Below are positions 6,730-47,929 of a stretch of 64,000 bases of DNA, in pieces. This DNA comes from Schmidtea polychroa (Eukaryota): NCBI GenBank assembly GCA_044892525.1, contig CM097885.1:78244001-78308000 (forward strand), given 5' to 3'. The first letter of the stretch is position 1; the number at the start of each line of letters is the position of its first letter. Below the pieces are notes generated by a model. The model saw only the letters and a program-made list of their open reading frames with translations. It had not been told where the DNA came from and ran no database searches. The position numbers and the translations under genes are program-made.

Positions 6730-6732
6730 GTA

Positions 6733-13000: not shown

Positions 13001-13154
13001 GATATTATTATGATTTTATAGATTTGATAGCGATTGTTTATTCCAAATATGATATGATTTCATAGATTTTATTAATTATTACAAATAAGTAAATAATTAA
13101 GACAAGCATAATGAAAAACATAAAATACACATAATATAAATAAATTTATACATA

Positions 13155-13300
13155 CAGGTATACCTCAGTAATACAGCGGGTATGGTTCCAGTTCGCTTGC
13201 TCATTTTTTACTCGCTACAACATATAAAAACCTTTAAACTTGTTTACACTATCATTTATTATTTGCGCAATAGCGCTAAGCTAAAAATAACAGTTTCAAT
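13155..13300. mobile_element. Possible pogo/Tigger-like terminus
   Basis: TA followed by CAGGTATACCTC, similar to Tigger TIRs; no partner end found. Confidence 0.4.
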
Positions 13301-13307
13301 TTAAAAA

Positions 13308-24193: not shown

Positions 24194-25336
24194 TATACAG
24201 AGAGAATCGAACACACACTGTGAGTAGGTAAGAATTTTGCCGGTGATGATAGGAATTATCTGATCGTTATGTACTCAATTAGGGACGGAAAGCTGAATTC
24301 TCAATCAATTAGGTCATCAAATCTATTAAAACAAAATGTGTCTGAAAGTTTGATTGAGATATTCTATACGCAATTCTGACCGACGGAAATATTTGCAGAT
24401 CGTTTGAACATTATAGCTGATTAAATTAACCATTTGGCGTGCCTTAATTTCTCACTCACATTAGATATAGACAGACGTCTCATCCTAAATAAATGGTTTC
24501 ATCCTTAAGTTATTTAAAATTTAGGCGATTCGTGTACATTCATTATATTTCATAAAAGTTTAATTACATTGCTCAACCTTTGATATTGTACTAAATCGTT
24601 TCAGTTTTAGCGAAATCAAATTGAACTTAGTTTATTTAATTAGCATGATTATTCGCTTAAATTAAAATTGACTTAAATTCGAAATACATTACATAGCTAC
24701 ATTCTTAGGATATCTAGCATTTATTTAATGGCTAAACCTAGTTTGATCATCCATTTATAATCGTATGTACCATAAAAAATTAGCACCAAAGTGTTGGGCT
24801 CGAAGCCATAAAAGCTGGAGTGATGTTGTGAGAGTTGGGAACGGTGGGGAATCGTTAAAAATTCTGCTTTTTACAAATAACTTAAAAATTAGATACCACA
24901 TTAAATAAAATTAAGCGAAATAGCTAAGTGTGAAAGAAAATTAAATAATAAAAAGGGAAAAACAATAATTTAAAAATCAGCATAGAAAACCACGAATAAT
25001 GACCAACAAACCCCAAATCATGTAACCATAGCAAACACATAAATGAAAATAATTAAATGAGATAACAACAAAACAGCGGAGGATCAAAATAAATAAGAAA
25101 ATGAAAAAAACCAGCATAAAAAAATTAAATAAAAATAAAAGAAATTAAAATAACAAACCATACGCAGAATTATCAATAGAAACCCACCAAAATATAGGAA
25201 AATATAGAAATTAAATAAATGAATAGAATAATTAAATAAAAACAAATAAATGAATTAAGAAAAACAAATAAAAATCAAAAAATAAGGAAAATAGTGAAAA
25301 ATACACCCTAACTAAGTCCTGATTGGATGAAAGTAA

Positions 25337-25338
<2 letters not shown>

Positions 25339-25412
<74 letters not shown>
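25339..25412. repeat. (TA)n microsatellite; others at ~8688-8740 and ~41212-41268
   Basis: Direct inspection. Confidence 0.95.
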
Positions 25413-25418
<6 letters not shown>

Positions 25419-27163
25419 TTAATATTTCGAAGTATTTTTATGATTTATGATTTTATATGCCAATAGGGTTGAACAGTCTAGCATGGTCGTTCGATAATAG
25501 TCGGTACTTGTACCGGTGGTTTTCGAGTGAACCGTGAGAGGTGGAGAGACCGCGAGTAGATTGACAATTGCTAGAACGACAAAGAGAAATTGCGGTATCA
25601 TCTTCGAGGTGTGGGCAGGGTGGATATGCGAATAAACATCATCATAGACGATAAATCTAGGAAGATTACAATATTCTGTATGCATCGAATTTTTGAGCGT
25701 AAAACGGTCACTAAGAGCATTTTGCCGATCTTTTTCGTCCAAATTCAGCGGATAATCCGAAAATCCATTTCTGCTAATGATTAGTATATCTCTCCATTAT
25801 TTCTTAAAGATTCTGTTTGCTATTCGATAACAGTGATTCCACGGTCAGTGCTAAATTTTCCGCTTAGATGCCGTCGATAATCACATGTATATATAGATTA
25901 GCGGCAAATTTCGCATAGATTCAGTTTGCACATCAATCTCGTTTAAGCTACCGATTCGCTGTGAATATTTCATTGCCGTAAATTCTCCAATAGACACGAT
26001 CGTGCATTTCGTCGAGAAATAAACAAAGTTAGTTAATAGTTTTAGCATCACTTCCGTTTGTATCGAATTAATTTGGTTTATTGACATTGATGCCCTGCTG
26101 AGCGAAGGAGATGTGATGTGAGGAGGCGATTCGGCAAAAGTTCCTTGAACTGCTCGATAATTCTACTAGTAGCGGTTGATGACTCGTAATATTGTAAATA
26201 ACAATGTTTGAACTGCTGATTTGTTTTGCTGATTTCAACTACGTATTTTCTATTTGTATATTATAATAAACCTTTTGATAGTAATCGATTCTTGTTGTCA
26301 TAGTATACTAGAATGATTGATTTCGATAGCGATATGTACCTTGTTTGCTGAATGTGGAGTAATGTTAAAGTGATAGGGTAGGAGGAAAGGACTCTGAATG
26401 GGCCATTAATTGCGATATGGAGAGTTATTTGCCTATAACCGTGTGAGAAATTCACCTTGGCCAGTGATATTGAAATTTGAGTCTGAGATTCCGATCGTTG
26501 CGAATTTTAAACTGATTTCCCACCAGTATGTAGTAACAATCCTCGGTTCCGATTAGTTTTTGGATGTTCGGTAGCGTGATAAGGAAATGAGTGGGCTTGG
26601 ATCACGGTCTGGGATGCCATGTCTTTGGACCACAGGCGTGTAAGCGAACGTAAGAGATAAGACCTTCCATCGGCACTCAGGAACCCGCATTGTGAACATT
26701 GTGGAGAGTAGTCTTAACATAGAGGCTCACCTGTCCACAGGTTCCGACCTGCGTATACAGTTCCAACATGAACCATCTTCATGGGTATACGTACGGGAGA
26801 TGAATCGCAAACTATGAAGGGTACTTAGGGAAAGTGCTGAGCATACTAACAACCACCCTGAGTACCCAACAAAAGTAACCAATGACAAATTTAAATTATG
26901 AATGGAGGAAATATAGTTCATGATAGCAGTTTTCCGGTATTAGACATTTATAATTAAACTGAACACTTAATTGAATTAACTGATAAATATTGAGTTGCAA
27001 GTGGTTAACTTCCCGTTGGTATAATTTGATGTTATCAATATTTAATTCATTAACTTTATTGGAGAAAAGGATCCATCTAAAAATCCCTGTGCTTGTTTTA
27101 TTTCCTAATTTAGGTGTGTAGCGTCGATTATTGGTTGTTATAGCTTCGTTTTCGTTTTTAGGC

Positions 27164-27641
27164 ATGTCTAACAATCCCTCAACATCGACGATACTTTGGC
27201 CATGTTATTCTTGTACCGAGAAAAATGCAATCATCACAACCTTGCAAACCCAAATCGACTTATTGAAAAAGAAGGTGGACCATTTCGAAGGAATATGGTT
27301 CGATCGCCCACAAATGAAAGAGAAGAGGACAAAGCTGTTATGAGTGGAACATTGTCGAAATAGCCTCATCGCAACGGTTGCTCATCAAGGACCAATCCAA
27401 AGCCTTGCATAAAGTCTATGTGCAGGCTACCCTCACCAAGAAGATCACCTCGATACTCATTTCCGAAGAGGATAATGCGTTCCCAGCTCATCATTATCCT
27501 CTTGAACCGATCAAGTCAACGGGAAAATCATGTAAGAGTTGTGTGGATATGCTTCTATCGCCCACAACTCCGGAGGTCAGCATCAAGGGCATGCCATGGA
27601 CTTTTTCGACTTGGATGAGATCTTCACCATCTACTTTATGA
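27164..27641 (+). pseudogene. Unknown coiled-coil ORF family, copy 2
   Basis: tttttag-gc-ATG; MSNNPSTSTILWPCYSCTEKN...KKVDHFEGIWFDRPQMKEKRTKLL*VEHCRNSL / LIKDQSKALHKVY...NAFPAHH...SCKSC. The following non-coding tract (atattg..atcctaac.gtc.gt) matches that of copy 6. Confidence 0.85.
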
Positions 27642-28679: not shown

Positions 28680-28865
28680 ACTTTGTCTAAAAATACTGAC
28701 TATAGAAACATATACTCAAGATTTTGAAAGTGGTAATTACTGTGCTACAAATATGCAAAGTATTGTTAGAAATCTTGATTATTTAGATAAAAACTTTAAT
28801 TGTGGAATAACTCTTGAAAAATTTAAAATTAAATACCCATTTTTCACATTTGAAAATTTAAAATT
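28680..28865 (+). pseudogene. Possible Polinton/adintovirus-like major capsid protein C-terminal fragment
   Basis: QDFESGNY...MQSIVRNLDYLDKNFNCGITLEKFKIKYPFFTFENL resembles the recalled Polinton MCP motif P.F....Y...SL...L....NGI..E.F..GY.LF.FDL; short. Confidence 0.45.
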
Positions 28866-28960
28866 TAAAGCCGAAGAAGAGAGTACGCCGGAGCAATATT
28901 CAAACGGGTCCATCTGGCCAAAATGCCGACCTCAACAGAGAAGGAATTCATAAGTTGAGA
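28865..28960 (+). pseudogene. Unknown coiled-coil ORF family, copy 3 (basic C-terminus only)
   Basis: KPKKRVRRSNI/KRVHLAK resembles KPKRKRLGRNIREKLKRAKLAE of copy 4, and is followed by the same conserved downstream element. Confidence 0.55.
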
Positions 28961-29114
28961 AAACCAGAGATAATTGTACCTACAACGGGTGTCCTATTTA
29001 AATAAATACAATCTGTGTTTGAGTTAAAACTAAAGTTAGTATGTACTATATAAAGAATGATGACTGAATATGTTGAAAAGACATGATGGAATTTGGGAAC
29101 GCAATCTAACGACA

Positions 29115-29312
29115 GGGACCAATAAAAATCGGACATAGACCTTCTATCGGCAGTCCGTGGACACAGGTAAGCAACGGACAATTATAGTATGCGAATGCAT
29201 GCTCACTTCTTGCTGGTACTTAAACCCTTGATACATTACCAACGTTTATCGCTCAGTGCGTATCAAGTGGTAAAACACGTCATTGTCTCATGGGTTACGC
29301 TGAAAACAGCAC
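29115..29312 (+). other. Conserved structured element downstream of the ORF family (copy A)
   Basis: Aligns by eye along its length to reverse-complement 32958-33150. Stem CTTGATAC (29227-34) / GTATCAAG (29260-67) encloses TACCAACG. Confidence 0.8.
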
Positions 29313-29841
29313 GATAAGGTTAAATGTNNNNNNNNNNNNNNNNNNNNNNNNNNNNNNNNNNNNNNNNNNNNNNNNNNNNNNNNNNNNNNNNNNNNNNNNN
29401 NNNNNNNNNNNNNNNNNNNNNNNNNNNNNNNNNNNNNNNNNNNNNNNNNNNNNNNNNNNNNNATAATAATAATATGTGGGACTGAAACAGGCACAAAAAT
29501 ACGACAATCATTCGACGAGCTTTGTATATACTAGTTTAAAATAAAATTGATAAAATATTATTATATATAAAACATTTACATATTGAAGTTTAATTTGTTT
29601 GATTATTAAACAATAACATAAATCATGCAAACATTCTTAAAATATTTGTAATGTTTTATTTGATTATATTATTGTTTTATTTACCTTTTAAAACATTTTT
29701 TATTTACCATATTTTGTATTTACCACATTTACTCCACTCTGAGTATGTCATTTGGAAAATCACTTAAAAAGCGAAAATTAGAATGGAAAAAAACATTTCA
29801 AATTTTGTTTTATTTAGAATAAAGGTAGCATAATGTGTAAC

Positions 29842-29940
29842 GGTCAGTGTTTCGACCAGTCAGAGGGGGATTGCCTCTGACCGGCAGTTAGTTTGGTGGT
29901 TTTTCTAACGCGTCTGTGTGCGCGGTTTGGTTAGATTTTA
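29842..29940. repeat. Short stem-loop repeat family (also ~36540-36640 and 55138-55265)
   Basis: Shared gtttcgaccagtcagagggggattgcctctgac hairpin (29842 and 55138 copies) and cgcgtctgtgtgcg (all three). The 55138 copy has an internal inverted repeat cgcgtctgtgtgcgc...gcgcacacagacgcg. Confidence 0.75.
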
Positions 29941-30713
29941 ATAAAATTGTTGTCATCTTTATTAAATTTAATCATGGTTCTGATCTGATGTTCGTCAAGT
30001 TTAAACAGTCAGTGTTGAAAAAGATTATAATTTCAAATGGCATTTCGAAAGTAAACATTCAAATTTCAATTTTTTCATTTGAGGAAGTACGTCATCAGGG
30101 CAAGTTCTTATGAGAATAATTGCATTCAAGCATGAAATTAAATAAATCAGATTATAGATCAAGGTTAACTGAAAAACATATATATGAAGATTGTTTGTTC
30201 TGTTTTTTTAGTGTGACATGATCCGCATAAATCTAATCAGTCGTATTAAATGGCCTGTTGTTTAAATGATCTATACTATTTAAATCTTTAAAAAGTTAAT
30301 TTATTTTAAATAATGATCCATTACCATTCATATTAGTCATTTGTAAATTTTTTTTTGATAGGGTGCATATATGAATAATGATATTTACAATTTATTTACA
30401 GTAATTTACTTGCTCACTAACAATAATTGGTTACCTATTAATTTTAAAGAAATATTCTTTCATATAATTAGTTTAATCTTTTAACTGAAGAAATATGCCA
30501 CCAATAAATTTGAGTTTATTTATTACAATAATATCTACTAAAAACATTTTAGGTCAATTATATCCAAGATACAGTAGCAAAAGTGAATATGTCATAAAGT
30601 TTCATGTAGTTATGGTAATATAACTGTTTATTTAGAACCCTATCCATATTTCCACAAGAAAAAGATAGCTGCTGATGTTACCATCAACCCGCTAACGTTG
30701 AGATACTTTAAAT

Positions 30714-32915
30714 CAGTGGTTCATAACCGGGGGTCCATGCACCCCCAGGGAGTCCGCGAACGGGTTCCAAGTGGTCCGCTGCACTATTTCCAAAAAATCG
30801 TAAAAAAAATTTTTATGTTATCTTGATATTGTAACTAAAATAATAAGTAACATTTCTTTACTGTTTTGTAGCATCAAAATTCTAACATTTGAATTTTTAT
30901 GTTAAAAAATTTAAGTCTCAGTAGACACCTTTTTGTAAATATTTACTCGTTGCTATGATACTATTCTGTTTTTGCATTAATTCGAAGTTTTAATTGTTGC
31001 TATAATAAAGTTTAATTTAGTGGAAATTTTTTTTTAACTTGCGGGTGTTATTTAATTCTGTCAATTGTTCCTGCACAATTATATTTGGTAAGTAAAAGTA
31101 GTGTACTGCATATTTGGTATAAAATTATAAAAATCATATTAAAAATTAACCATTCAATTTACAGTATAATCTTGGCATGTCCAACAAAGAGAAAATTTAT
31201 CAATAGCTACGTTGAATATGGATTTACTTTCACTACTGATCGTGACGGAACTCGGAAACCTCAATGTTTTTTATGTGGAAAAGTGCTATGCAATCAAAGT
31301 CTGAAGCCTGCAAAATTACGGGAACATTTACAAAAGATGCACTCAGAAAATGTTAAAAATGAGTTATGACTTCGGGAAATCTACCGCCATTAGGTTTTGC
31401 ACAAACTCAAAAACCAGCTCTGGAGGCATCCTATTTAATCGCGAAAAACAAAAAACCACACACAATTGGTGAAACACTTATAAAGCCATGTGCTTTGGAA
31501 ATGGTTGAGTTGTTTTGTGGCAAACAGTCATACAATGCAGTTGAAAAAATTCCACTATCAAATGATGTAATTCACTCAAGAATTCAAGACATGTCATCTG
31601 ATATTTTAGAGAAGTTGAAATTCTCCGTTTTCCCATTCAGCATGCAGTAGGATGAATCTACTGATGTTGCCCAGTGTAGCCAGCTATTAGTTTTTGTGCG
31701 ATATGAATACAATAGTTCAATTAAAGAAGAATTCATATTTTGTAAACCGCTGGTAGCCACAACAAAGGCCGTGGATGTATTCAATCTTGTACAAAACTTT
31801 TTTGTGCAACATGATTTCCCTAATTGGAGTAAGAAGCTCGGCACAATTACCACTGATGATGCTCCAGCCATGCTTGGAAACAGATCTGGATTTGCATCTC
31901 TGGTTAAAGCAGAAACTCCTCACATTTCCGTAGTTCACTGCATGCTGCATCGTGATGCACTAGCCGCCAAAACATTACCACCAGATTTAAAAGCAATTAT
32001 GTCAACTTGCGTTAAAGTAGTAAATTTCATAAGAGGTCGCGCTACTAATCATCGCCTATTCAAAAATCTCTGTCAGGAACTTGGATCACAGCATAATGTG
32101 CTTTTATATCACACTGAGCTTCGCTGGTTATCAATGGGGCTAGTTTTATCTCGACTGCATGAACTTCGAGTGGAAGTTTCTATATTTTTCAAAGAAAGAG
32201 TGTTCTCTATGAAACTTTTAAGAAAACCGAATTCGTGATGGGTCTCGCCTACTTGGCAGACATCTTTCTTCATTTAAATGACTTAAATCGTTCTATTCAG
32301 AGACTTAATATGACACTTATGGATACCGGAGAAAAATTGAGATCATTTATAGAAAAGATACCCCTTTCGAAAAGGCGGTTGGAAAATAATAATTATGCAA
32401 ACTTCATAAATCTAGAAGAGCTACTCCTAGCAGGTACAAACATTCAAGAAAAAAAGACAAATCAGTTTAAAAACCTAATTTTGATATATTTGACCACCCT
32501 TGAAAATTCGTTTCAAAATTATTTTGTAGTAGAAGAGTTGAAACCTGCTGCATCGATTCGTAATCCATTTATTATTAACCTTGAGAGCGTCGACGATGAT
32601 GACATGGCCAAGGACGATTTAATTGATTAGCGAACTAAGGAAATTGTTAAACATGAATTTGAAACAAAGAATTTATCAGAGTTTTGGTGCTCATTGTTGG
32701 AAGGGTATCCTATTCTTGCCAAGAAGGCTTTACAGTCTCTGATTCCATTCGCAACAAGTTATTTATGCGAATCTGGGTTTTCAACACTTCTTATCATGAA
32801 AACCCAAACTAGAAATATATTGGATGCAGAACAAGATATGCGTATTGCGCTATCAATCACTACTCCTTGTATTAGCATCCTCGTTTAAACAAAACAGCAG
32901 CAACCATCACATTAA
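30714..32915 (+). mobile_element. hAT transposon, Buster/SCAND3-like, pseudogenised and lacking its right end
   Basis: Left TIR CAGTGGTTCATAACC. Fragments KPQCFLCGKVL..SLKPAKLREHL, KKPHTIGETLIKP, DESTD, TDDAPAMLG, HCMLHR, HTELRWLS, PFATSYLCESGFS; several frameshifts. Confidence 0.95.
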
Positions 32916-32957
32916 TCTTAATGGTGGGTTACTGATGATTAAGTATTTTGCTTTATA

Positions 32958-33150
32958 GTGCTGTTACCAGCGTAACCCAGGATACAACATTGTTTTACCT
33001 CTTGATACCAGTTGAGTAATCAACGTTGCTATTGTATCAAGTGGGTGAGTGCTCGCAAAAATTGAGCTCACTAATTGCACTATAATTGTAGGGCACTCTT
33101 TGGGTCCACGCACTATCGTTAGAAGATATGTGTCCGATTTACTCAGGTCC
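32958..33150 (-). other. Conserved structured element (copy B)
   Basis: Stem CTTGATAC/GTATCAAG (33001-33041) around TAGCAACG, plus a GTGAGCTC/GAGCACTCAC hairpin; homologous to copy A. Confidence 0.8.
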
Positions 33151-33235
33151 TTTACTTACTTTCCGTCATCAAACAATCATAAGTCATAGTAAAACATGAG
33201 TTAATTTATTAAAACCTGTTCATACAGTACACTTA

Positions 33236-33634
33236 TCACATCTGAGATGCTTTTGTCGATTTTGATCTCTCTCGTTGATCTTGCTCTGCCAGCTTGGCTC
33301 TCTTCAATTTTTCGCGAATATTTCGTCCTAACCGCTTGCGCTTCGGCTTGTTTGACGGAGCTGGTGGATATATCTCGGCCAGCTCTATGTCCAGCGGCCT
33401 GATTCGCATTGTTGCTTCGTTTATCACTTGTTGATTTTTCCTAGTCTCTAATGCGCGGATTTCCGCTTTGTCCCGTTCAGCCTGGGTCTGGAGTTGGAGG
33501 ATTTGTGACGTCCTTTTTCATTTCCACCGGGCTAAACCAAGTGCCTTCGAATTCCTCGACCCTAACTCGAAGGTCTTCCGCTTGTTGTTGGGCCTGCTCG
33601 CGGTCCCTCCGTAAATTCTCAAATAGCTTGAACA
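33236..33634 (-). pseudogene. Unknown coiled-coil ORF family, copy 4
   Basis: After ttttcatttag: VFKLFENLRRDREQAQQQAEDLRVRVEEFEGTWFSPVEMKK, one frameshift, then QILQLQTQAERDKAEIRAL...KPKRKRLGRNIREKLKRAKLAE. Confidence 0.8.
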
Positions 33635-33879
33635 CTAAATGAAAATTTAGTTTATACATACGTGTACGTGATAAAGGGGGATTCAATTATGCGAAAAGCG
33701 AATTTTATTTATGTGGACAAAGGTACGCCATATTACCCCTTGGTCATTTACGATCATAAACAGGCGATAAATCTCCCTCACGACTATTTCGATAATTTAC
33801 TAGAGTGCATCAGAACAAAACAAACAACACAAAGCAAAACAAAATCAAATTTAAAAAAATTTTAAAAAAAAGTCGAAAT

Positions 33880-34270
33880 TCAACGGTGTTTCGTCAGTCT
33901 GATTAATGAATCACAGTTTGGTTTTCGCGGTCTTCCGCGTTTCCTCGGGGGCTCATCTCCGCTCTCGACCTCATCCAGTGGGATTCCCTTCTCTTCTGCC
34001 CGAAGCTGGGCTTCGATAATCCTTAATTTGTACTGGGCGATTTCTACGGCCATTCGTGCCTGATCACGGGCCTCCACTAGCTGGTTGTTGTACGGCTCCG
34101 TTTTCACCCACGCCGGGGCTTCGGGTTAAGACCCAATCCGAATCACCGGGCCGTAGTTGTCTAAGTCTCGACCCCGGTTCCAGTCGTAAATTTCGTGAAT
34201 ATCTGGTCCGGAGTCGAGTGTGATTAGCTGCCGGTTTGCTTCTTCATCAAAATTGTTGAGATTGAGACAT
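33880..34270 (-). pseudogene. Coiled-coil ORF with AT-hook-like motif, upstream of copy 4
   Basis: After an acceptor-like caattag, ~130 codons with one stop: ...PAWVKTEPYNNQLVEARDQARMAVEIAQYKLRIIEAQL...PPRKRGRPRKP. Confidence 0.6.
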
Positions 34271-37200
34271 GCCTAATTGGATAAGCATAATTAAAAGGAT
34301 TGACAAATTTATTTTCGTCTTTAAATCCCAAATTCTTATTTAGCATTGTCTTCATCCGTCTAGGTCGTAGAAGAAAGGGTAGGTCGAAATATAAAGTATA
34401 TTATCATAATTCACGTTACAAACAAAATGGTAATTCAATTATGAATTTAATCAAATCAGAAAATTATAAATTAAATTAGTATAATATTTTTCTGCTTCTA
34501 TCTTACCCTGGAGTATTCTGAGTGCTAATTCGTAAATTTTATCATTTAATCTTACCACAATTTGTTGAGCTATTACCAAAATTAACTTACTAAAATCATT
34601 GTCAAAATATTTAGCAAAATTATTATCTTAATTAAAAACTTTCGAAAAAATTTAACTTTGTTTACCTGTATTAATTAGAAGAAATTAATATTTACTTTTG
34701 TTTTTATAATATTTCGGTTATATGATATGATTAACGATATTTTAATTAAAATCTTTCGGAAAAATTTAACTTTGTTTATCTGTATTATTTACAGAAGAAA
34801 TTAGTATTTACTTTTGTTTTTAGAATATCTCAGATCATATGCTTAACGATGTATGCTTAAAGCAGTGCATAATTATCGAATCAACCAGCTCCGTCGGTGC
34901 TGGGTGAGCTGTTGGAACCCTAGGTCCACACCTCATCCTCACTTAGACAGAGTTTTCGGGTTCGGTATGGTCGTCATTTAATTCTAACTCTGTCACCATG
35001 ATTCACTCCCAGAAGAACATTGATGAGGAAATTATGACAAGTTTGGCATCGGCTACTCACTTTTATCTATCAGGAATTCGTGGATTTATGTTTTATACAC
35101 AGATAATGTTTTATATTTATACACAGAGCCGAGGAAATGAGTCCTTATTTATGGCTTCCCTTTTTGGATTTCAGTTTGCTCTAGTCAATGATAAAGAAGA
35201 TTACCACCTTGCTAATATTTATGTTCTCTCGTTGGGATTTCATTTCCCTTCTTATGGTTAAATAATGGAAATTAATTCGGAATTTATGATTTATGAGCTG
35301 GGCAACAATCTGATCCAAGCTTTGTTATTATTCCGCTATTATCCTACTGTCTTTAATTGAATTTCTATATTATTATGATTTTAGGTTGTAAAATTCTTGT
35401 TTATTATTTCACTTTGAATTCGAAGGTTCAGTGGGAATAATTTGTAACAATCAGTTGTGCAAATAAATGATTATATACGTATTTTTTACGCACTGATGAT
35501 TTAATGTAGTTTTTCGGTTTTATTAGTTATTTTGTGATTCTTTTTACCTGTCTACATAATCACACCTTCCGGTTCCAAGGAATCCAATCAACTGTAACTC
35601 TGACTTCACTATTTCTAATAATCGCATATGACATAAAACCCTCTATCGGTCGTCCAGAAATTTTAGTACATCTTCCCTTTGGTATTCCGCCTATGTTCAC
35701 AGCGTCACTAAACCTCCTGGACGTGCAGGTTGTTGATACAACACTCATGCTCGACATTCGTGAGGTCTTATTTCCATTTCCCACGACCATATCTTTTTTG
35801 TCTACGCTCTTCATCTGAGTCAAGATCATTAACCCTCTCGAAACGCCAACATGATAAAAACACTAATAATAATTAAAAATAGTAATTTTAATAATAATTT
35901 TGTTTCAATAATAATTTATTCAAATAATTATTAATAAAGATGATAATATTAGTTTTTAGCTTAATTTTTTTAATAAGACATTTAAGTACTTTTATCGCAT
36001 TGACTAGCCCCATTTTCTTATTTTATATTTATTTACCAATATGTGTTGAGATGAGTTGAGAATTAAATACCATTTGACGGCAATTAGTCAAGTTATTTTC
36101 ACTTTTTAATAATGATTGTGTGAGATAGAAGCTTTTGCTGAGTTGTGTGAATTTCATTTCTCATCTGCTTCATTATGTAGTCGTTTTCAAATTCTTGTCA
36201 CTCTATCATTCGTGTCACTCACTGGTTTTTTCAAAGTTATATTTCCAAGACTGATACTTAAGTGAAACGAATTTTCTAGATTATTTTTAACTGGTGTTAT
36301 CGATCTTGTTTTTGTTTCATTCATATTTGCTAAGGATTCTGCTTTTGATTTTGTATTTTTTAAATTCAATTCCATTTTCATGATCTTTTTAGTCAATTCA
36401 TCAATCATAATACAAAAACTTTTCAAAAATTTACCTCTTTAAACAAAAACTTCCAATAACTTGACATAAATCCAAAACCGAAAAACTCCAAAATTCGATA
36501 ATAACAACTCGAATAACCAATTGTCCACGCCTGTCTGCGCACACAAAATAAATCCAATTTCCGAGCAACAAACGCACACAGACGCGACACTTCACCTCAT
36601 GATTCACCTCCACCCCCTTGACACCTTGGTGTCAATATCATATCCCCTTTAGCTTTTTCTTCTTTTATAATTAAAGTTGGTAGTAGAGCGTGTTTCCCTT
36701 CAGGGGGCTACGCACCAGGAAAGAGAACAATGGCGCAGATAATACAGCCTTGGTTGATCAATGGTGATATTTGTTTTTATTTTGAATTTTATGTGTAAAC
36801 ATTTAAAAATGTAAAATTAACCATGCTCCCTTCCTTTGCGAGTGTGAAAAAGTGCTGCTATGGGCCCGAGGGGAACAGTTTAAATGGAAATAAAATAAAA
36901 AAACTCAGCGTTTTTGCGAGCTAATTAAAGGTTGAAGGGATCTCCTTTTTCACTCCTATCAAAAATTGCAACAATTATTTCACTTGTTTTGCCACATCGG
37001 CTTGTTCTGGTTTCATGTCAAAAACCTTTTCACCAAAAGTTGTTAAATTATATGCTACAAATTTATTTCATGTATGTTCATTAATTATTTTCTTAATTTC
37101 GATTTTATTAAATTTTTTCCTGATTAATTCCTCAACATGGAAATCCCTAAATACTAAGGTAGGAAATTCTATACTCAGACAAAATTTATAAAATAAGATA

Positions 37201-37989
37201 ACATTAGATTTGAGAGTTGGTTGAGAACTTATTTATTTTAGCCCAACAATTCTGTACTTTATTATTTTTGATTTTTATTGATTTTAAACTGATTTTATTT
37301 TTGTACCTTCCTATATCAACCACAACAATATGCTGTTATGTAATTTCAGCATCAAATATGTTTGATCCTCGTTAGAGTATGCACGAGCTAGAGCTAGTCG
37401 TGCTGATTTCGAAGCACCTTCTCCGATTAGAGTTTGCAAAACAATACTATTTGTTCGTTTTGAAAAAAAATTTTGAATAATTACTTTTTCTAAAATTAAA
37501 TTAGAACTTCCTATTTTGTGTAATCTGAATTAAAATTTAAAATAAATTTTATAATTGAACTCCACCACAACTTTTTAGAAGGTAACAAATTCCTAAACAA
37601 GAAAATAAAAATAAGACCTAAAATAGGAAGCAATTGTCCATTAAGTAGAATTTTGTATATTTCAAACTGACAAAAAAACAAATAAAAGCAAATTGGTTAG
37701 TTATTCTTAATCGAACAACCTGAATAACTAAATTTATATAAGACAGCAATAACCATGATAAAAGTTTGGCAAACGGATATTATTATCGAATCAAAATTTA
37801 GATATCACACGACTTTAAAAATTATTTTGATTTATGTTGTTGTATATTATATGATAAGAATTCATTTATAAAACAATAATGTCTAAAAACGAAAGAGTGA
37901 TTGCAGATAATTTAAAATTTATTTTATTTTAGAATATTATATTGAAAATTGTTAAATTTTATCTAAATTTAGAAAACCAGGTAAAATGG

Positions 37990-38200
37990 CATGCACCATG
38001 CGATATAGTCGTAAATAGTGGAATACAAACGTAATACAGTTACCCAAGAGTCGGGGAAATAAGTTCCAATTTAAAAAAGCAGTTAATGATAGACATAGAA
38101 AATTGTACTGCACTTTCATTGTAAGCAGGCGAATCAACTGACGTGTCTGATATTTCGCAGTTTATAATTTTTATTCGAATGTATGGAGATATATATCAGA
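37990..38200 (+). mobile_element. hAT (SPIN/GTF2IRD2-like) transposase fragment
   Basis: LSL*AGESTDVSDISQFIIFIR matches the SLAxDESTDVxDxAQLxIFIR motif. Confidence 0.6.
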
Positions 38201-38699
38201 GGATAAATATTCAAACTTAATAAAATGCTTCGGAAATTCAACTTATTAATGTCAGTCTGCTTTTTCACATATGAAAATTATAAAGTGAAAATACCGAATA
38301 GCATTAACAGATGACCATTCGGAATACAGCCTAAGAAGTTGTCTTAGCACTTATATCCAAAACTACAAAAATAATGGATTCAATCCAATGTAGAGCATTA
38401 ACATCAAAAAATTCTATATCTGATTACTCGAAAAATTAATTTTCATTAAATTTGATTTCTTAACTTTTTAAAGTTATTTACATTTTTTAAAATAAAGTTA
38501 TTTAATTTTTATATTTTGACATATTTGTTTTATTGTGATGAATTTATTGCATTGTAAATAAATATTATGTAAGTACTAAAAAGTGGATCACAAACATATT
38601 TCAGATGTGAATGTAGCTCTCATACGAAAGTTAGTGGGCACCCCTACATTACACACATATCGAGCATCAAATTACGGAAACTAGGCCAATACACACCAA

Positions 38700-39300
38700 C
38701 ACAAAATACCCATTACAATAAACACTCCTTGATTAGACGCACACAATACAGAAGAAGAGTACCAACTATTCTATAACATGCAGGTAGAAAACTTGGATGA
38801 CCGACAGGTCGACCAGGCGGAGGAAACCCCATTTATAACCCCTCTAGAAAATTTCCGTTCTATTGAGTGGTAGACAAAGGAATAATCTGTCTCAATTTTC
38901 AACATTTTACAGAGTCAGAGTGACGATAGATCAGTACATTGCAGATAGCACACGAGTTAGGAAATAGAGATTTTTGGACGAAAAGACTACATTTAGATAA
39001 TTCACGAGTTTTTTCATGAATCGATCATAATCGATAATTTATAGGAAAACTTCACACTAGGAAATACAGACCTATGCGAATAGGATTAATGCATAGTACA
39101 GATAAGCCCAAAGAACTCATCAGGATAAAAATTGATTTAGGAAACTTTAACAAAAATTGATATCACCCCTTTTTTGTGTAATCATGAGATCATCATTAGA
39201 CGAATAAGTTCTGGTTCGAGAAATATATGCAGGTAACACCAAATTAGATAAGCTAATGACAAACACAAGTTCAACTTCATTTTTTTCTTGGATTAAAGAA
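38700..39300 (+). mobile_element. Heavily decayed non-LTR retrotransposon RT fragment
   Basis: Weak matches KYRPM (NYRPISL-like) and IYAGNTKL (YADDTKL-like); many stops. Confidence 0.4.
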
Positions 39301-39394
39301 ATAATCACCCCGGAAGGAAAATCCGTATTAATATTAACCGTCTTGTGGTAACCTTCTCTGTGGGTCTAAATCAGTCATCACTATCCTCTAGAAA

Positions 39395-39920
39395 ATGAAC
39401 GATTCAAATTCTACAACTAAACCTTCCGCTAAGGAAATACAATTAATCGAGGATGTGCGCAAGCTGCGCGACCGCTTAAGTCAGAAGCAGAAGCAGTTGA
39501 ATCGGGTGGAAGCCACTTGGCTCGCCCCACAGAATGCCCACGCTTTAAATCAGTGAATCTTCAGGTTGGAAAAGGCTCGCGACGAAATTGTAACAGAGAG
39601 CCGAACTCAGCTATTAGTGATTCGGCGAACACACGAGCTGTTGCTGAAAATATACACCGCAATTCAGCACCACGACCTCGATCTGCACAGCCGATACCAG
39701 TTCCTACAAGCTCTTCCGTTCCTACAGTCGTACCAAACGCATCAATTCCTCTAAACCCGAGTCAGAACCACTACACAAGGACTCGTCGAATGCACCGTTA
39801 AAGAGCCAAAGCTCGGTGGCTAGCCGGACTAGCCGCCCTGGCTCCTTCATCACTTTTGACAACTGCCTTCCAGCCAATCACTCAGCCAATGCGGACCTGG
39901 ATGACTCCAACTTTTATCTA
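39395..39920 (+). pseudogene. Unknown coiled-coil ORF family, copy 5
   Basis: ctctag-aaa-ATG; MNDSNSTTKP...VRKLRDRLSQKQKQLNRVEATWLAPQNAHALNQ*IFRLEKARDEIVTESRTQ...KIYT / NHYTRTRRMHR*RAKARWLAG. Confidence 0.8.
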
Positions 39921-40109
39921 GATTACTTATGACATTAGACTCTTATCATTACCCCTTGTAACATTCACCGAAAAAATGTTTAGTCTTTTTATCTTTTTAA
40001 TGAATTAAAGAGTGTACTTGTTTCTACTCGTATTTAATTTATCGTAAATCCGAATCCTTCTCTTACTCCATTCCAAAACCCTTAGTTTATTTATACAAAG
40101 TGTCTTCAA

Positions 40110-40389
40110 GTACCGTAGACGTAAGCCCTTCCATCAGCAGTCCTGCTTGTTAGGGAAAGTGTACCGTGAGAAGTCGGATTAAGCCAGCTCATCTTTACTC
40201 GAGCTTTCCGCCGCTATATACAGTACCAACGCGTTTCACACCCGCGTGTATACAGTGGATACCTTTAAATAGTCGTGTTTGGTTTTCTAGGCGTTACCCA
40301 GCAACAGAACTTCACCCCTAGCGAAAACATCATCCGAAAGTAAGTCTTTTTTCTGAGTCAGGATAGGTAACTCCCCTAGGACGCCAACA
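40110..40389 (+). other. Conserved structured element (copy C)
   Basis: CTTCCA, GCTCA hairpin (AGCTC/GAGCT), stem TATATAC/GTGTATA (40215-40252) around TACCAACG; ends CTCCC...GCCAACA. Confidence 0.7.
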
Positions 40390-41207
40390 TAATTATTTAA
40401 AGGTCAATTTAATAAACAGATTCATTTGTTATATAATTTCAGGTTTATTATATACTGTAAAGCTGTTAATAATTCCCCTGGAGAAATATTTATTACTTTT
40501 TCAAAAGAATAGAAATGAGGAATTATTAGGTTTTTCCAAAAAATGAAATTTAACAATTATTGTCAATAGAATTGATTTAGTATATCGAAAATCTGAGATG
40601 TAAAATAAATTTAATATGTTTATTGATGTTTTGGTTTAATACTGAATATAATCTAAAAATCATATAAACATTATAAATCCATTATAATCCATTAATTATA
40701 AATCCATTCTTATTTTTTTCAATTTTCATTTTTTTTTAAATTAATAGAAGATGAGGGATTATTAGATGTTTTACAGTTTAAATATTTATAACTTATATAA
40801 TATAGAATATAAATTATTTATATGCACCGACTATAAGTAAATGGGTCATAACTGAATATGAGTTATGTAGTCCGCTAGAGTTAAATTCGAATGAACTTTA
40901 ATAAAGTGCAAGATCTGACAGAAACTGTTTGAAAATTGCAAACAATCTAATATTGATAGTTTGAAATTTTAGAGGAAAATGTTATTATTCGAAATTGATT
41001 TATGTGTGGAGTAATATTTTTACAAAAATATTTCCTTTAATGAACCTGTCTGTTTGAGATTGCTGGTTTTTTGTGATTGATTTTTGGTTCAGGATCTTAC
41101 GGAAGGATTTTAGTGGAAATATTTCCTTTATCGTCATGATCAACTGTTGGATGACAGGGGTCGAGCAATTACAGAGTTCAAACTCACGAAATATTATAGA
41201 GCAGGCC

Positions 41208-41273
<66 letters not shown>

Positions 41274-43563
41274 CAATATTTACGTAGAGCCTCAGCAGTG
41301 TCCACAATCTAAACCAATCCAATCCAAAGAATAATGTCAGAAGATTAACCATTATAATGACTATATTGGTGTTCTGTTCATTTAATGACTTAATTTGACT
41401 TATTGATTATTTAATCTTGGTAGCTTATTTATTTTGATTTATCCTTTAGTATTGGGGTGTATTTTTATTTTTACGTGTATACATTTTAATAAAAAATATA
41501 TTGGGAATCAATTAGTTATAAATTGGCATATTGAAAAACAGATGTTTGAAAAAACAACAAATTAAGAATAGTAATGATTGCAATAACACATACTTTAAGA
41601 ATAATTATAAAAAAACACATTTTAATGCTTAAAGAAAAAAATAATAAGTTTACAGTATTACAAAATAACAAAACGCATACTTGAAAATAATTATACATTT
41701 TCTAAGAATAATTAATTTTTTGCAATATTACAAAATAACAATAATTAAGGATTTATGACACATTTTTTCTTATCATAATAATAATAATTAACATATTTTT
41801 GACAGTACTTAAATACAATTACAAAATATATTAATTTAAATTTAATAGAAAGAGGGAAACACAGAAAAAGTATAATAGCGACTTAAAATCATTATTATTT
41901 GCCCAAAAGTTAAACCACTTTTTACAATCTAAAAAGGTAAATCCTTATTAGATTACAAAATAAAACAGGCACAACAAAAACGTCTAGCAAATCGCAAGCA
42001 ACATAACACGAATCACACAACACTCACACAGACAATTTACACGCAGTAATTGTATTGAGCATTGGTATTCGAATATTGAGAAAATTGTTGAGATTTTATT
42101 TGGTAAATTTTCATTTTAAAATAAATATTCAAAAAACAACTTTGTCTTTTCATATTGAGTAAATATATATAAGAACCAGTAAAGTTGGGGTTTTCGAATA
42201 ACGAGACCTCAACACAAGTATTGGAAAGTTTAACACCACTTAGTTTCTCAGATAGTCGGATGTGATGATTAGTTAAATATCGGAAATTATTTTCTTCATT
42301 CCGATATATCGCAATTTTCGTAATCGATTTCGTTGACTTAAATTTTATAATTATCTGACAGGATTCTAATCAACTGTCATATTTTTATCAGTTTCAAATA
42401 TCGGATTCAGTGTGTGGTTTGGTGTTTTATTGATGTAATCATCAAGATGGCAGTGATTTGAACTAATATGCAAATCCATATTTTCGACTTCTTACAATCA
42501 TAATCAGAAAATTTTATTATGCACATAAGACCGTCTAACAGCTCACCACAAATTACTTGCTTTGTCTCATTAAAATATGTGTGTGTGTGTGTTGGGTTGG
42601 ACTCGCTCAGGGAGCAATTTTGATAGCCATATATTGGCTAGGGTTATTATTATAATAAAAATAAATATAAATTACTAAAAATAGAAATAATTACTATAAA
42701 TAAAAAATACTAAAATAAGTAATTTATAAATAAATATATAAATAGTAATATATAATTACTATAATTAAATAAGTTAGGAATTTATTAATATAAATATGTG
42801 AACTGTTACTCAAAAAAATTAGACAAATTTTGTTTTGAGCTGAATCAATATTGATTACAAGCTACTTTCAAAAGACAATAATTTCCGCTATAAATTCAAT
42901 AAGGGTTAATAGCGTTCATTGGAAATAAGCGACAACTGAAGTGGCAATAATACTATTCAATAGAAATTAAATGAGAATTCTTAACAGCTGCTACCAAGAA
43001 AATTCCGTATATAAATAACAGAAATTAGAAAATATAACAATTTTGAACAAGCAATATCAGCTTTGTCAAAAAATCAGAAGAATTTCTTAACCATAAGGTT
43101 ATCTGAATTCTTGTATTAAACTTTAAACTGCACAACCCAACCACGAGAAGCAGCAATTCGTTAAAGCTCTTGGGGATGTAGATTTTCAAATTAACAATAT
43201 TGGTAATATATCGAAATCCTCGCAGTTTGCAAAAACAACTATGGTAACAAGTTCTTTAGTGATTTTATATATTTTCGCATCGGTTTTATTTTTTTATAGA
43301 AATGAAATAAAACTATAAAATATTGTTTAGTCATAAAAGCGTCATATATAATTTTTACAAGTAAATGGATTGGGCACCACTAGACCACCCTCCCCCACCC
43401 CGTTATAACAATTTTTTTGTTATTATTATTAATATTATTATTATAAATAATGCTCAAAATGCTGAAATTATTAATAATAATTATTATCTATCTAATAAAT
43501 TATTATTGACAGCATGCAATTTGTTAATTGTTCTTTAGCCAAAGCTATGAAAATTCTTACTAC

Positions 43564-43835
43564 TGTTGGCATATGAGGGAGAAGAAAACTCACCCAACCA
43601 TTATCATACCGACCGCATTGGTTAGCTCAGACACCTCCCATGCATACGCCAAATGATCATTTACATATTCCCACGCATGAGCCCGTGGTGATGTTCCACG
43701 TTGGTAGTGCCCATACGGGTCGGAGCTGACTAACAGGTGAGCCCCTATCTTAGGACTACTGATAGCCCGCTCGCGGTTCAGGTTCACGGGTGCCTTAGAA
43801 GGACTTACCCCTATTCATGCTTCAGTCTTGGTTCG
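43564..43835 (-). other. Conserved structured element (copy D)
   Basis: CTTCTA, GCTCA hairpin, stem CGTATGGGC/GCTCATGCG (43674-43717) around TACCAACG; ends CTCCC...GCCAACA at 43564. Confidence 0.7.
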
Positions 43836-44093
43836 ATCCTGGTCCAAGGGAACGACCGTTAGCCTACTAGCTTTCCTTCCACAACACTAAATCATTTATT
43901 CTCAAAACCAAACATATGAAAATCTTTATAAAACGGAACCAAATAGACAAAATATATTAATACCGAAATGAAAAAAAAACATCATTACACTTATTAATGC
44001 AACATCATACGGACGGTTAGGATGCACAATATTAACGAAGTTTATCAGTCAATTCACGACTCGAAATACATTCGGAATCACTCGCAAACCGTT

Positions 44094-44855
44094 TTAGTTA
44101 AAGTTTTCTCCGTCGGCAATTAACTCGTCGATGTCTACCGGCAATCTACAATCCGCGATAAACTTGATGCCGTTAGCTGGAATGATACGGAAAACTTCTT
44201 TCGAGGGAATCGTATGAGTGGTGGATATCTCTGCTATTGTCGTCTGCGCTGCAAACAAAGAAGCCTCGAGCGCCTTCATTGCATTTCTTCGTTTCTTAGT
44301 CTTCTCGGCCCTAGTTGGGTGTTTGCGTTTGCGTGATGTCGGATTTCCTCCAACAGCAGTAGATACTGTGGGTGCCACTAGGATCGGGGCCAGAATTGGG
44401 TCAGATGGACCGCCTTTCATAGGTAAGTATCCTGACAGCACTGGGGCTGGAATGGGCGGTAGATGTGAACCGTGCCCTTGACAAGCTGTAGTGGGAGTTG
44501 TAGATGACTGATGATGGAGAGGAAAGACATTCGATCCATCCAATACGGGATATTCGCGTACCCGCTTTGCTATTTCTGCCTCCGTGTAGACCTTATGGAG
44601 GGCTTCTGATTGTGCTTTTATTGTGAGCCTTTGGCATCGGCTTTCTTCTAGTAGGCTGTCCCTACAATGTTCTAACCTGAGGATCTTAGCCTTTTCCTCC
44701 TTCATCTGTGGCGGGGAGAACCACGTTCCTTCATAAAGATCTATCCTCTTCTTGAGGGCCCCTATATATAAATGAAGTTGAGAGATGTCCGAGTTCTTGT
44801 CAGCGCAAGAGAAACACGGACGAAGTTCTTGGGCGTTGTTGGATGGTGTTGTCAT
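44094..44855 (-). CDS. Unknown coiled-coil ORF family, copy 6, intact 253 aa
   Basis: Open frame starting right after ttttctag. PCFSC, heptad region, EGTWFSPPQM, RLEHCRD, KVYT, FPLHH, Pro-rich linker, basic RKRK...KKRR tail. Confidence 0.85.
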   Translation of the reverse strand: MTTPSNNAQELRPCFSCADKNSDISQLHLYIGALKKRIDLYEGTWFSPPQMKEEKAKILRLEHCRDSLLEESRCQRLTIKAQSEALHKVYTEAEIAKRVREYPVLDGSNVFPLHHQSSTTPTTACQGHGSHLPPIPAPVLSGYLPMKGGPSDPILAPILVAPTVSTAVGGNPTSRKRKHPTRAEKTKKRRNAMKALEASLFAAQTTIAEISTTHTIPSKEVFRIIPANGIKFIADCRLPVDIDELIADGENFN

Positions 44856-47800
44856 CTAGAAAATTAACCATGGTTCAAACCGAATTGCGATACTTATTAA
44901 GGTATCCAGTACAAGAATTTATTGGTTATAATTCTGTAATTTTCACGAAGTGTTTTGATTCATAAATTTTATGTTTTTAATGTCTCAGCTAAGTTTTCTC
45001 TAGTAATCCGTTTTAACGGTTAAAATGTAGCTAGTTCCAAATTCTATCGAGTCACTAAACTCAAAGATTTCACTCATCATACCGCGCCACAGCATACAAT
45101 AAAACAACTTGTTTTCACACAATTCAACACTCCTCATTCACTCATTTAGGAAACAACATTCCGATCGATTTATTGATTCAAGATGATGGAGAGAAGAAAA
45201 CGGGGAATCCTCGATTTTAACTTGTTCGATGAAAAATCTATCTTTACCCTCGGGTCGGATAACTCATACTCATTGCATTTTAGTCGGCTGCTATAGTCAA
45301 ACATATTTACGTTCGTAATCCATAGAAGAGAATAGCATCCGATCGTTGGGGATTTCAGTTTATTAATTTGTACCTACTTCGTATTGCTAATTCGCATGAA
45401 AAATTCATCCCTCCTTATGGTGCATTGTTATTACGAATTTACATAAAGGACTTTAAATATATACTATTAGCTAATTATATTATAATTTAAATTCTAAAAA
45501 ATTCTTTTAAAAATCGCGCTACTTCTGTCGCCCTAGTGACGCCTACTTGTAGATGTGTGCATTATTCTTATATTTATTAACTGAGTCGGTATGCATTGTT
45601 GGAGAATCTCCATCTTGAGCTTTCATGTGTGTCTATTTCTATGTGATAGTGGAGAAAATTCGACGTCGTATTAAATCGCAGTGGAGACGATCTGCTCTGT
45701 TGTGCATACACACCAGCCTACCAACTCAGGGAATTACGAGTAGGTTACTACGTAATTATGACGTCACGGCCAAATTCCAATGCCAAGAGTACTCTGCTAT
45801 CCTACTGGGAGACGATTCACGATGGGGTGTGTGTGCAGTCACGAAACGTAACATATTAGCATTATCGCTAAGTGTTCTACGAGCATCACCATGGAATAGT
45901 ACGTAGTAATCCGATGAGCAATAACTAAGCTAGAATGTTTAATCTGCCTCGATCATTACGCAGCCAGTACAAGACAAGGTCTACCCACGCGTCAATTAGA
46001 TTATTCCTCGTGGAAATTTATTATCGGTATTATCTGGTTTCGTTGGTCATTCGATTCGATCAGTTATCATCTGCCGGCAATTCATTTCTCAAGTCACTGA
46101 TAACTCTTACAGTGGTTCCTCAATTCAGTCAGTGATCAATTGATAAATCTGTCAGCGATTTCTGTCATTTCTCCGTGAGTAATCTGATAACCTCTCCTAC
46201 TTATTTACATTCTTTTCAGGAAAAACGATGTTTATCAGCGATTCGAAGCTAATCACTTAACTTAAAAGTGCATTCGTCGACGGGTGTCATTGCTAACATA
46301 TCGACGGTTCAGATTCTGCTAGTATACCGAGGAAAACAGTACTCTACGAAATTTACTGGATTTATACTCCAAGCCTTGTCGACAACATTCTCGTTCACTA
46401 TCCCGACTGACGGGTTGACCGTTATGAAGAAATTTCGCCGAACTATATGGATTCTTAATGCGTTGATAAAATTGTCAATCTCAACTCCGAACTGTCTTGG
46501 GTTCGCAACTTAAATCTCCTCCGCTATTATCAGGTGTATCGATGTGACTTGTTGAAGCTATGGAACTTACTAAGAACGATGCGAGCTCGGTGAAGAAATT
46601 CCATCTTTCGGCCTGTTCTCCTAACCTACTGAGCCTCTACACCCCTCATAACACACCCAAGAAGGCAATCATCTCTGCCGCCATTCTCGGACGATCATGA
46701 GGGACCAGTCGACTCTTTCGCATTCAGCAATTTAAAAACAAATTTCAGATATAAATAATAAAAATGGAACAAATAATAATCAAGTAAATGAATCAAATTA
46801 CGGGCGACCATATCGTCTGAGTTCCAAGTATGATGCTTTCTCATTTCCAACCCAATATCCCCTTACAGTATTGGCATCGTATCCATCATTATCACTTGCT
46901 CCTGATCCAATATCCTCGCAACATCTCTTGGCTACTCTCTCCATTTGGCATCATACTTGAAATCATCAGAAGGTACAATCGTCGGCACCATGAAGAAAGG
47001 CAGGTTCTGTTTTTAAATAAATTTATTGAATAAATTTTCCTTGTTATTTACAAAATTTAATATCAATTATAAATATTTACTAAATTTCATCATATCTATC
47101 ATAAAATCAAACCTAAAAATATCCTACCATACCTTGAGATTGAATAACTGGGTTAAATCGGCTAAAGATTTCCTGAATAATACCGTTAATAGTTCGCTGT
47201 ATGTTTCTTCCTCAAATCAAATTAGTCTTCTTTGGATTAGCCTTCTGTAGTAGTTCGTGAATAAAGTCTCGAAACCTGTAGAGTTTTTGATTAAAGTGGT
47301 CAAACTTAACAAATTTTACCTGTAGAGTTTTTGATTAAAGTGGTACTCTACTGATTTTTAGCGTTTCTTATATACTATTTTTCGTCCAATCAGGACTTAG
47401 TTAGGTTGTAATTTTTAATATTTATTATTATTTTATGTTTTTATTATAATATATTAGCTTTTAATAACTTAATTTATTTCTTATTATTATTTTATTTATT
47501 TTTCCTATTTTTCTTATTTTTCTACTATTTTTTCTGCGGGTTCACTGCTACTTTATCATAATACAATTTTTGTTTTAATTAAACTTAAAGATATTTTTAT
47601 TTTTTATTTATTGCTTTAATTTCTCGTTTATTTTCTCTTACTTTTTTTGCTTATTCTATTTTTACTTTATTTATTGTGTTTTAACTCAATTTTCTTATAT
47701 CCTATTTCTAATTCTTAAGGGCTTTATTTATTTATCACTTATTCTTATTTCTTTTTATGGGTATTTTATTGTTTCCTTATTTATTATTGAGGTTTGATGG

Positions 47801-47929
47801 GGATTTATTTTTTATTATATTTCGTTTATATTTTTCGCGGCTCGTTTCCCGATTTAACCCAGTTTTTCTCTACTTCAAAACTTAGCCCAACACTACTTTT
47901 CCTTTAACTTCGTCTGTCTTTCAGGGGTA

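Follow-up and report, generated by a model that had tools for sequence, protein, structure and literature searches.

Five copies of a folded, sequence-conserved RNA element lie within the 64,000-nucleotide stretch of Schmidtea polychroa DNA analyzed here (contig CM097885.1 of assembly GCA_044892525.1, positions 78,244,001 to 78,308,000; hereafter the window, with positions counted from its first letter), and two of these copies occupy the end of multi-kilobase long terminal repeats (LTRs) of a retrotransposon family that is probably of Ty3/gypsy type. That the element is a real, sequence-conserved folded RNA was confirmed by comparison of the copies. As to its role, the reading we favor, with a probability of roughly one half, is that of a leader structure that is not catalytic and serves priming or packaging.

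An initial annotation had listed four copies (A to D) sharing the blocks CTTCYA, GCTCA and TA[CG]CAACG; all four were present at their coordinates with the blocks in that order, and a fifth full copy (E; nhmmer E value 1.6e-11) was added (Table 1). Core identity among the five is 42-69%, and the spacing of the motifs is fixed in every copy, with 58-61 nt between CTTCYA and GCTCA and 34-35 nt between GCTCA and the bulge described below. Sequence hidden Markov models built from four copies each recovered the omitted copy in all five leave-one-out searches, at E values of 6e-7 to 3e-12. Identity is highest in the loops and bulge (68-79%), followed by the paired columns (55%), the apical loops (46%) and the linkers (33-39%). 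A sixth candidate is weak, with a covariance-model E value of 1.5, local scores equaled by 1-2 of 200 shuffles and a middle that could not be aligned; searching with the covariance model added no other full copy in the window, nor any in the gypsy family with small LTRs that is also found there. The three-motif pattern occurs in at least 120 prokaryotic loci as well, but none of the 80 that were scored with the covariance model passed (best 7.7 bits, off the motif), so that those 80 represent chance matches and provide a negative control. Two local resemblances are probably also fortuitous: a 12-nt match to the 3' arm of the first hairpin of copy A inside an element at 15110-15880 with repeated AAACCGGTT-type ends, which resembles a miniature inverted-repeat transposable element, and, in copy D alone, an upstream plus-strand segment (43829-43841) that we take to be similar to a tRNA B box.

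The fold was assessed on a sequence-only alignment of the five copies. Scored on this alignment, from which the structure itself had been derived, 22 core pairs were formed in 90% of 110 cells, with changes on both sides at 13 of them; none of 500 shuffles, which ignore relatedness, equaled the observed covariation, and slid partners paired in just 23-47%. An extended set of 27 pairs gave 88% of cells paired and both-side changes at 18 pairs. RNAalifold, run on the same alignment, predicted the inner stem of the second hairpin (H2) and the stem-bulge-stem of the third (H3); three long-range pairs that it also predicted were treated as spurious, and a search across the element for a covarying pseudoknot yielded only 3-bp candidates. 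Across 135 cells G.U exceeded A.C by 14:2, which identifies the strand in the sense of the accompanying open reading frame (ORF) as the one that folds. Covariation, RNAalifold, strand bias and regional conservation together bear out the proposal of the initial annotation that the stems vary compatibly under selection on RNA structure. Measured against shuffled sequence, H3 alone gave folding energies of z -1.6 to -3.0. The folding energy of the whole element lies within the shuffle range (z -1.04 for D, -1.60 for E and -0.02 for C) and the first hairpin (H1) is unstable by itself (z -0.9 to +1.8), both of which weigh against the structure.

Four domains, H1 to H4, make up the element. The H1 stem is present in four of the five copies, each time in its own register, and its inner 7-nt UUCYANY loop (6 nt in D) presumably resembles a T-loop or an anticodon loop. 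The bulge of H3, ANUWSCAA, is 79% identical across the copies. The stem enclosing TA[CG]CAACG does pair as had been claimed, but the GTGTATA partner named for copy C belongs to an alternative register, the homologous pair being CTATATAC/GTATACAG. H4 occurs in B, C, D and E with unrelated sequences. Comparison with Rfam 15 gave no family at the gathering threshold anywhere in the 64 kb, and nothing relevant down to an E value of 10.

The position of the element is best seen in units D and E, both of which begin with TGTTGGGCT, finish in CCAACA and are flanked by 4-bp target-site duplications (TSDs); with three candidate starts each, a 4-mer is expected to match by chance in 1.6% of pairs, and two of the four ends tested matched. 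Their starts are homologous (75% over 166 bp), with an A-rich tract and, near +500, a CCAAT/TATA-like block in common. The LTR integrase signal is given in the consulted excerpt of PMC3601003 as TGTTRNR...YNYAACA, to which the starts of D and E conform at 7/7 positions and the ends at 6/7 (D) and 7/7 (E). A gypsy provirus in the window (reverse transcriptase E value 1e-24) has a polypurine tract followed by TGTTGGGG and an A-rich tract at one LTR boundary, and at the other LTR end CTCAACA followed by a sequence resembling a primer-binding site (PBS). These termini fix the polarity, so that the A-rich LTR end corresponds to U3 and the element end to U5. Given the homologous starts, the CCAACA ends, the TSDs and this polarity, D and E are solo LTRs with the element as their last ~300 nt, in U5 or R-U5.

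Thus, of the hypotheses offered initially, that of an LTR- or U5-like end was borne out, since in both D and E the 4 bp next to the CCAACA end duplicate those that precede the homologous start, and the proposed element terminus is the LTR end. Its description as CTCCC-N5/6-GCCAACA holds for copy D but not for copy C, where the spacer is N7. The window contains solo LTRs and LTR fragments, among the latter A, B and C, of a family with multi-kilobase LTRs; as no internal region is tied to the LTR, its Ty3/gypsy parentage is drawn from the termini of the neighboring provirus and is accordingly probable rather than observed.

In LTR elements, signals for priming and packaging are located in the leader ahead of the PBS (PMC12789967, as excerpted), and a location just before the PBS suggests that the element would have such a role; the initial mention of a replication or packaging signal therefore follows from the position at the LTR end, by inference. 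In a full element, transcription of the copy in the 5' LTR would place it in the genomic RNA leader, immediately ahead of the PBS. The leader would fold into the four domains, with the conserved loops and bulge forming a non-catalytic recognition platform that could be bound by an element-encoded protein, the tRNA primer or both, and binding would start reverse transcription and select full-length RNA for packaging. Transcription, the assignment to U5 as against R and each functional step are put forward here as probable consequences of location. A role of this kind is consistent with the greater conservation of the loops and bulge over the paired columns, and with the retention of the element in LTR E, from which the ORF is missing.

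Several observations weigh against this reading. No full element with PBS, gag and reverse transcriptase is linked to the LTR within the window, and the gypsy family with small LTRs does not carry the RNA element. TSDs were not found for copies A (which runs into a gap), B and C or for the sixth candidate, and the 5' LTR ends of A, B and C could not be placed. The element is preceded by an AATAAA, but this is one of 21 such hexamers in the LTR; A/T-only poly(A) hexamers precede the element by 85-140 nt in A, B, C and D, and there is none in E. Finally, where the copies share just 42-69% identity, invariant loop nucleotides are more suggestive of a catalytic core or a protein site than of a U5, which is typically variable.

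The first of these last two prospects, a self-cleaving ribozyme that is new or related to twister-sister, we consider unlikely. It would cut at GCUC|A in the internal loop of H2; GCUCA is invariant in five of five copies, as are a U-A and a C-G pair, and a U/A position is extruded. In the twister-sister-like LINE-1 ribozyme, as far as the excerpt of PMC11620745 describes it, the L1 strand reads G7-C8-U9-C10|A11, with pairs U9-A39 and C8-G40, and the H2 loop agrees with this strand and both pairs in all five copies. The conserved unpaired nucleotides are spread over three distinct domains whose spacing is constant, and it is conceivable, if improbable, that the 7-nt loop of H1 or the bulge of H3 docks on the H2 loop. 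Cleavage might then, again at long odds, trim transcripts that read through the poly(A) signal or set RNA ends as in retrozymes, which provide a precedent for ribozymes borne on LTRs. However, on the opposite strand G36 and C37 are missing from all five copies, the sequence there being (A/U)(G/A)(U/A)AG instead of G-C-N-A-G, and the G sits in an invariant U.G pair rather than a bulged base triple, within a 1x3 loop between covarying pairs. The missing equivalents of G36 and C37 and the pairing of the G exclude the element from twister-sister as such, so that cleavage would have to proceed by a variant core, which we doubt. No Rfam ribozyme matched, even at an E value of 10, and cutting between cap and PBS would presumably be costly for an integrase-type element. 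Hairpin-ribozyme loops were rejected by eye against what we take to be their consensus.

The second prospect, a protein site, leads to the ORF. At least seven ORF copies are present in the window, only that of LTR D being intact. Its ATG directly follows a pyrimidine-rich ...TTCTAG site resembling a splice acceptor, and a pyrimidine tract with AG just ahead of the ATG was seen in four of six copies inspected. Codon-position identities of 0.59/0.71/0.37 indicate coding constraint, that is, purifying selection. The claim that the element always lies 3' of the ORF and in its sense holds for B, C and D, and for A through a remnant detectable in DNA (score 42 against a best of 38 among 300 shuffles; not significant at the protein level), but not for unit E; conversely, ORF copies at 13.3, 7.5 and 6.8 kb stand without the element.

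Searched alone against 5.8 billion proteins, ORF D gave no relative among 593 candidates. A profile search matched 18 proteins, of which 16 were kept as true homologs and two (P0035 and P0037) were dropped as long coiled-coil repeat proteins. Thirteen of the 16 are gene-model chimeras fused to unrelated host domains, which we interpret as the product of gene prediction in which an exon of the LTR was spliced to host genes; the chimeric models that carry the ORF (proteins P0022-P0041) involve many unrelated host genes and are likely a systematic annotation artifact in the source genome. Characteristic of the family are an N-terminal helical domain with GTW-x-P and ESRxQ motifs, a linker that is disordered and a segment rich in arginine, the latter detected by script in nine of the 16 homologs and visible by inspection in a tenth, with 11 of 20 residues lysine or arginine in D and B. 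Structure prediction gave long helices at mediocre confidence (predicted local distance difference test 65.7, predicted template modeling score 0.31). Searches of PDB sequences, PDB folds and viral folds returned no match at E <= 0.001, Pfam no family for the ORF D protein and Atlas only weak leads; in prokaryotic genomes none of 147 candidates was related. A separate decayed ORF at 33883-34250 (-), upstream of the ORF of copy B, has an AT-hook-like KRGRPRK motif and could represent a second ORF, or an exon, of the LTR.

This arginine-rich, coiled-coil protein raises a further alternative, to which we assign a minor though appreciable chance, namely that it acts on the element as on a Rev/Rex-type response element. 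The apparent order of promoter, intron, ORF, AATAAA and element would give a short spliced mRNA for the protein that ends before the element and a read-through full-length RNA that contains it, which is the logic of Rev/Rex; on this account, which we hold only tentatively, the protein would oligomerize on the element and promote export or stability of the full-length RNA. The acceptor-like AG, the purifying selection, the 16 database homologs and the arginine-rich windows of ten of them fit such a module, as do the 13 chimeras, which are what a mobile element with an exon-like cassette would be expected to produce. Placement within an LTR has precedent, in that the excerpt of PMC12789967 locates the Rex response element (RexRE) of HTLV-1 (human T-cell leukemia virus 1) in the 3' LTR, and sag and exon 2 of rem of mouse mammary tumor virus (MMTV) in U3. 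With regard to an arginine-rich motif in a helical protein, both the basic motif and long helices were seen, and one homolog matched Pfam REV at an E value of 0.0013; that match is under the cut-off (19.1 against 22 bits) and is missing from all 11 aligned members. The basic motifs could equally be nuclear localization signals. An export-signal pattern follows the basic motif in only some homologs, and it is promiscuous, in one case also matching the neighborhood of two unrelated coiled-coil proteins. No fold match was obtained for the protein in the searches above, and its binding to the element is putative.

Other identities were far less convincing. In hepadnaviruses, the bulge of the epsilon signal templates a short primer that is then moved; analogously, the CCAAC in the H3 bulge could template a primer for transfer to the same CCAAC sequence at the end of the element. 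The stem-bulge-stem-loop geometry of H3 and the match of the bulge CCAAC to the terminal CCAAC in C, D and E are in keeping with this, but the terminal CCAACA is accounted for as an integrase attachment (att) site with TSD, the bulge of B reads GCAAC and no terminal-protein reverse transcriptase is linked, and we regard the proposal as very improbable. More remote still is an RNA like an H/ACA small nucleolar RNA (snoRNA) or an integrated deltavirus or viroid. A terminal hairpin precedes ACA, and ANANNA follows H3 in some copies; however, the ACA is the LTR end, there are four domains rather than two hairpins, and the sole snoRNA match in Rfam, snR81, scored 12.6 bits on the wrong strand, so H/ACA was rejected. 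Among named Atlas families, delta antigen came nearest (0.79), a value that the tool's calibration places no higher than chance, and rod-like self-complementarity was absent at all eight loci; with neither a rod genome nor a delta antigen, a deltavirus-like RNA was rejected too. tRNA genes were likewise rejected.

Table 1. Positions of the RNA element, its domains, the LTRs and the ORF copies in the window.
Feature	Position	Strand	Remarks
Copy D	43564..43850	-	Complete (H1-H4); final ~290 nt of LTR
Copy E	26625..26871	+	Newly added; complete
Copy C	40110..40389	+	Complete through GCCAACA; LTR 5' end and TSD not located
Copy A	29115..29327	+	Enters N gap at 29328
Copy B	32922..33150	-	Terminal hairpin GGGUUAC/GUAACCC, then ACCA; adjoins stop codon of Buster/hAT transposase
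Possible degenerate sixth copy	35625..35851	+	H1-like hairpin; C-like GCCAACA end
H1 in D	43788..43811	-	3-5 bp stem enclosing conserved 18-19 nt loop
H2 in D	43720..43775	-	Long irregular hairpin; invariant A-U, G-C, U.G stack beside GCUCA internal loop
H3 in D	43672..43718	-	7-8 bp covarying stem, 8-nt bulge, upper stem-loop; strongest covariation
H4 in D	43566..43652	-	Terminal hairpin; 3' strand reaches LTR end
Solo LTR D	43564..47892	-	4,329 bp; TGTTGGG...GCCAACA; 4-bp TSD 47893-47896 / 43560-43563
Solo LTR E	24792..26871	+	2,080 bp; TGTTGGG...CCCAACA; 4-bp TSD 24788-24791 / 26872-26875
Promoter-like block (putative function)	47368..47400	-	Inverted CCAAT and TATA; shared with LTR E (25312-25345); ~500 nt inside LTR
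5' splice-site-like motif	47132		LTR D
AATAAA	43895..43900	-	99 nt upstream of CTTCYA in D
ORF D, intact	44094..44855	-	253 aa; helices/coiled coil at N terminus, with GTW-x-P; residues 175-194 rich in Lys/Arg
Decayed ORF upstream of C	39395..39930	+	Stops and frameshifts
Decayed divergent ORF upstream of B	33236..33650	-	Frameshifted; Lys/Arg-rich tail
Remnant of B-type ORF tail upstream of A	28865..29010	+	
Decayed ORF 3' of E	27164..27640	+	Probably belongs to an older LTR that received the E insertion; candidate start 22015
Decayed ORF F	13130..13813	-	Followed by pre-element segment only; element lost
Highly decayed ORFs G and H	6730..7750	-	Without element; E 0.02, 0.007

Further traces of the same LTR family were noted in the window. 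A TGTTGGGCT start at 37248 (-) implies a suggestive 4.3 kb span for copy B, with a flank mismatch and no TSD, and a gag-like fragment (36966-37055) lies 200 bp inside it. A probable older LTR of the family, also with a TGTTGGGCT start, spans 22015-27918 (+), with LTR E and a Tc1 element (ORF 22912-24039, intact, 375 aa) nested within it; its own RNA element is seemingly cut off near 27918, a weak signal (equaled in 26 of 300 shuffles).

The window as a whole is ~30% GC, with microsatellites, N gaps and dense transposon remains, the latter comprising Tc1 transposase, Buster/hAT, gypsy protease and reverse transcriptase, part of a protein-primed polB and a weak match to viral Rep. The gypsy provirus (50822-~62400, -) has a polypurine tract, a 775-bp LTR (51595-50822), a decayed gag-pol and a PBS-like site at ~61925 that we take to be of the tRNA-Trp type; it also has possible env-like ORFs (57348-58626) and an ORF at 55971-56642 that by eye resembles a DEDDh exonuclease, neither with a Pfam match. 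The smaller LTR family is represented by a 799-bp solo LTR with a 4-bp TSD (9463-10261) and a copy 79% identical at 62670-63446, both without the RNA element. A gypsy gag-protease fragment (17641-19136, -) shows a weak ubiquitin-like match (E 0.008) directly before the aspartyl protease; a Ubi/SUMO-like motif has been reported in Burro polyproteins. Broken ORFs at 49637-50477 (+) resemble the Rep endonuclease and helicase of CRESS viruses (Viral_Rep E 0.008), with related DNA in opposite orientation at 16646-16904, and a Polinton-like fragment of a protein-primed family B DNA polymerase lies at 48126-48554 (+; E 8e-7). The Buster/hAT transposon (30714-32915, +) is missing its right end where copy B adjoins the transposase stop codon.

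As a class, structured LTR leaders are already known. No earlier description was found of this fold or this ORF family, neither of which turned up in searches of Rfam, Pfam, PDB and full-text literature, a scope outside which subscription papers, Repbase entries and supplements may name the LTR. Nothing on the element appears in the accessible portions of PMC8532177, PMC13524379 and 10.64898/2025.12.11.693146. The covarying multi-domain fold and the orphan basic protein provide a defined RNA with a defined candidate partner. If the protein binds the element, Rev/Rex-type control would have arisen outside vertebrate retroviruses; if the element cleaves, it would constitute a new ribozyme class. 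It is possible, though on balance we would expect otherwise, that the giant LTR forms a regulatory module complete in itself, of a sort that the searches made did not find for invertebrate retrotransposons, with either a Rev/Rex-like protein and its own response element or a new ribozyme class built on a half-site like that of twister-sister. The Rev/Rex version would be an independent invention of complex-retrovirus logic in a Ty3/gypsy lineage. Even the more modest reading as a leader provides a marker for finding giant LTRs and explains false chimeric gene models in protein databases.

Among known systems, twister-sister and twister-sister-like (lantern) ribozymes share with the element the GCUCA strand, the U-A and C-G pairs and the extruded nucleotide, but differ in topology and in having G36 and C37 and a G triple where the element has a U.G pair; the element, moreover, has no Rfam match. 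Retrozymes likewise carry a conserved RNA motif in the LTR, in their case a hammerhead, which is lacking here, where the LTR is far longer and coding. The resemblance to HTLV-1 Rex/RexRE, MMTV Rem/sag and the Rev/Rev response element pair of human immunodeficiency virus extends to an arginine-rich helical protein, an apparently spliced message, RNA structure in the LTR and an LTR ORF; no homology of sequence or fold was detected, and the present system, with putative binding and export, belongs to a retrotransposon of invertebrate type. The Burro elements of planarians are giant gypsy elements with multi-kb LTRs and accessory ORFs (PMC6431247, in excerpt), and the S. mediterranea genome in which they occur is >70% AT (PMC11410931, in excerpt). 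Compared by description only, they are similar in LTR size, Ty3/gypsy type, accessory ORFs and AT-rich host, and the excerpt of PMC6431247 does not mention an LTR-internal ORF or RNA fold for them. Most mapping of leader RNA structure in retrotransposons has been done on Ty1 and Ty3 of yeast, and conservation of stem-loops within LTRs has been described (PMC3601003, in excerpt). Comparable in position are the R-U5 leaders, that is, the retroviral U5-IR/leader and the 5' RNA domains of Ty1 and Ty3, which like the element lie at the 3' end of the LTR before the PBS; the element is set apart from them by the lack of an Rfam family, by its four domains over 250-290 nt, by loops that remain invariant at 42-69% identity, and by the 4.3 kb LTR that carries it.

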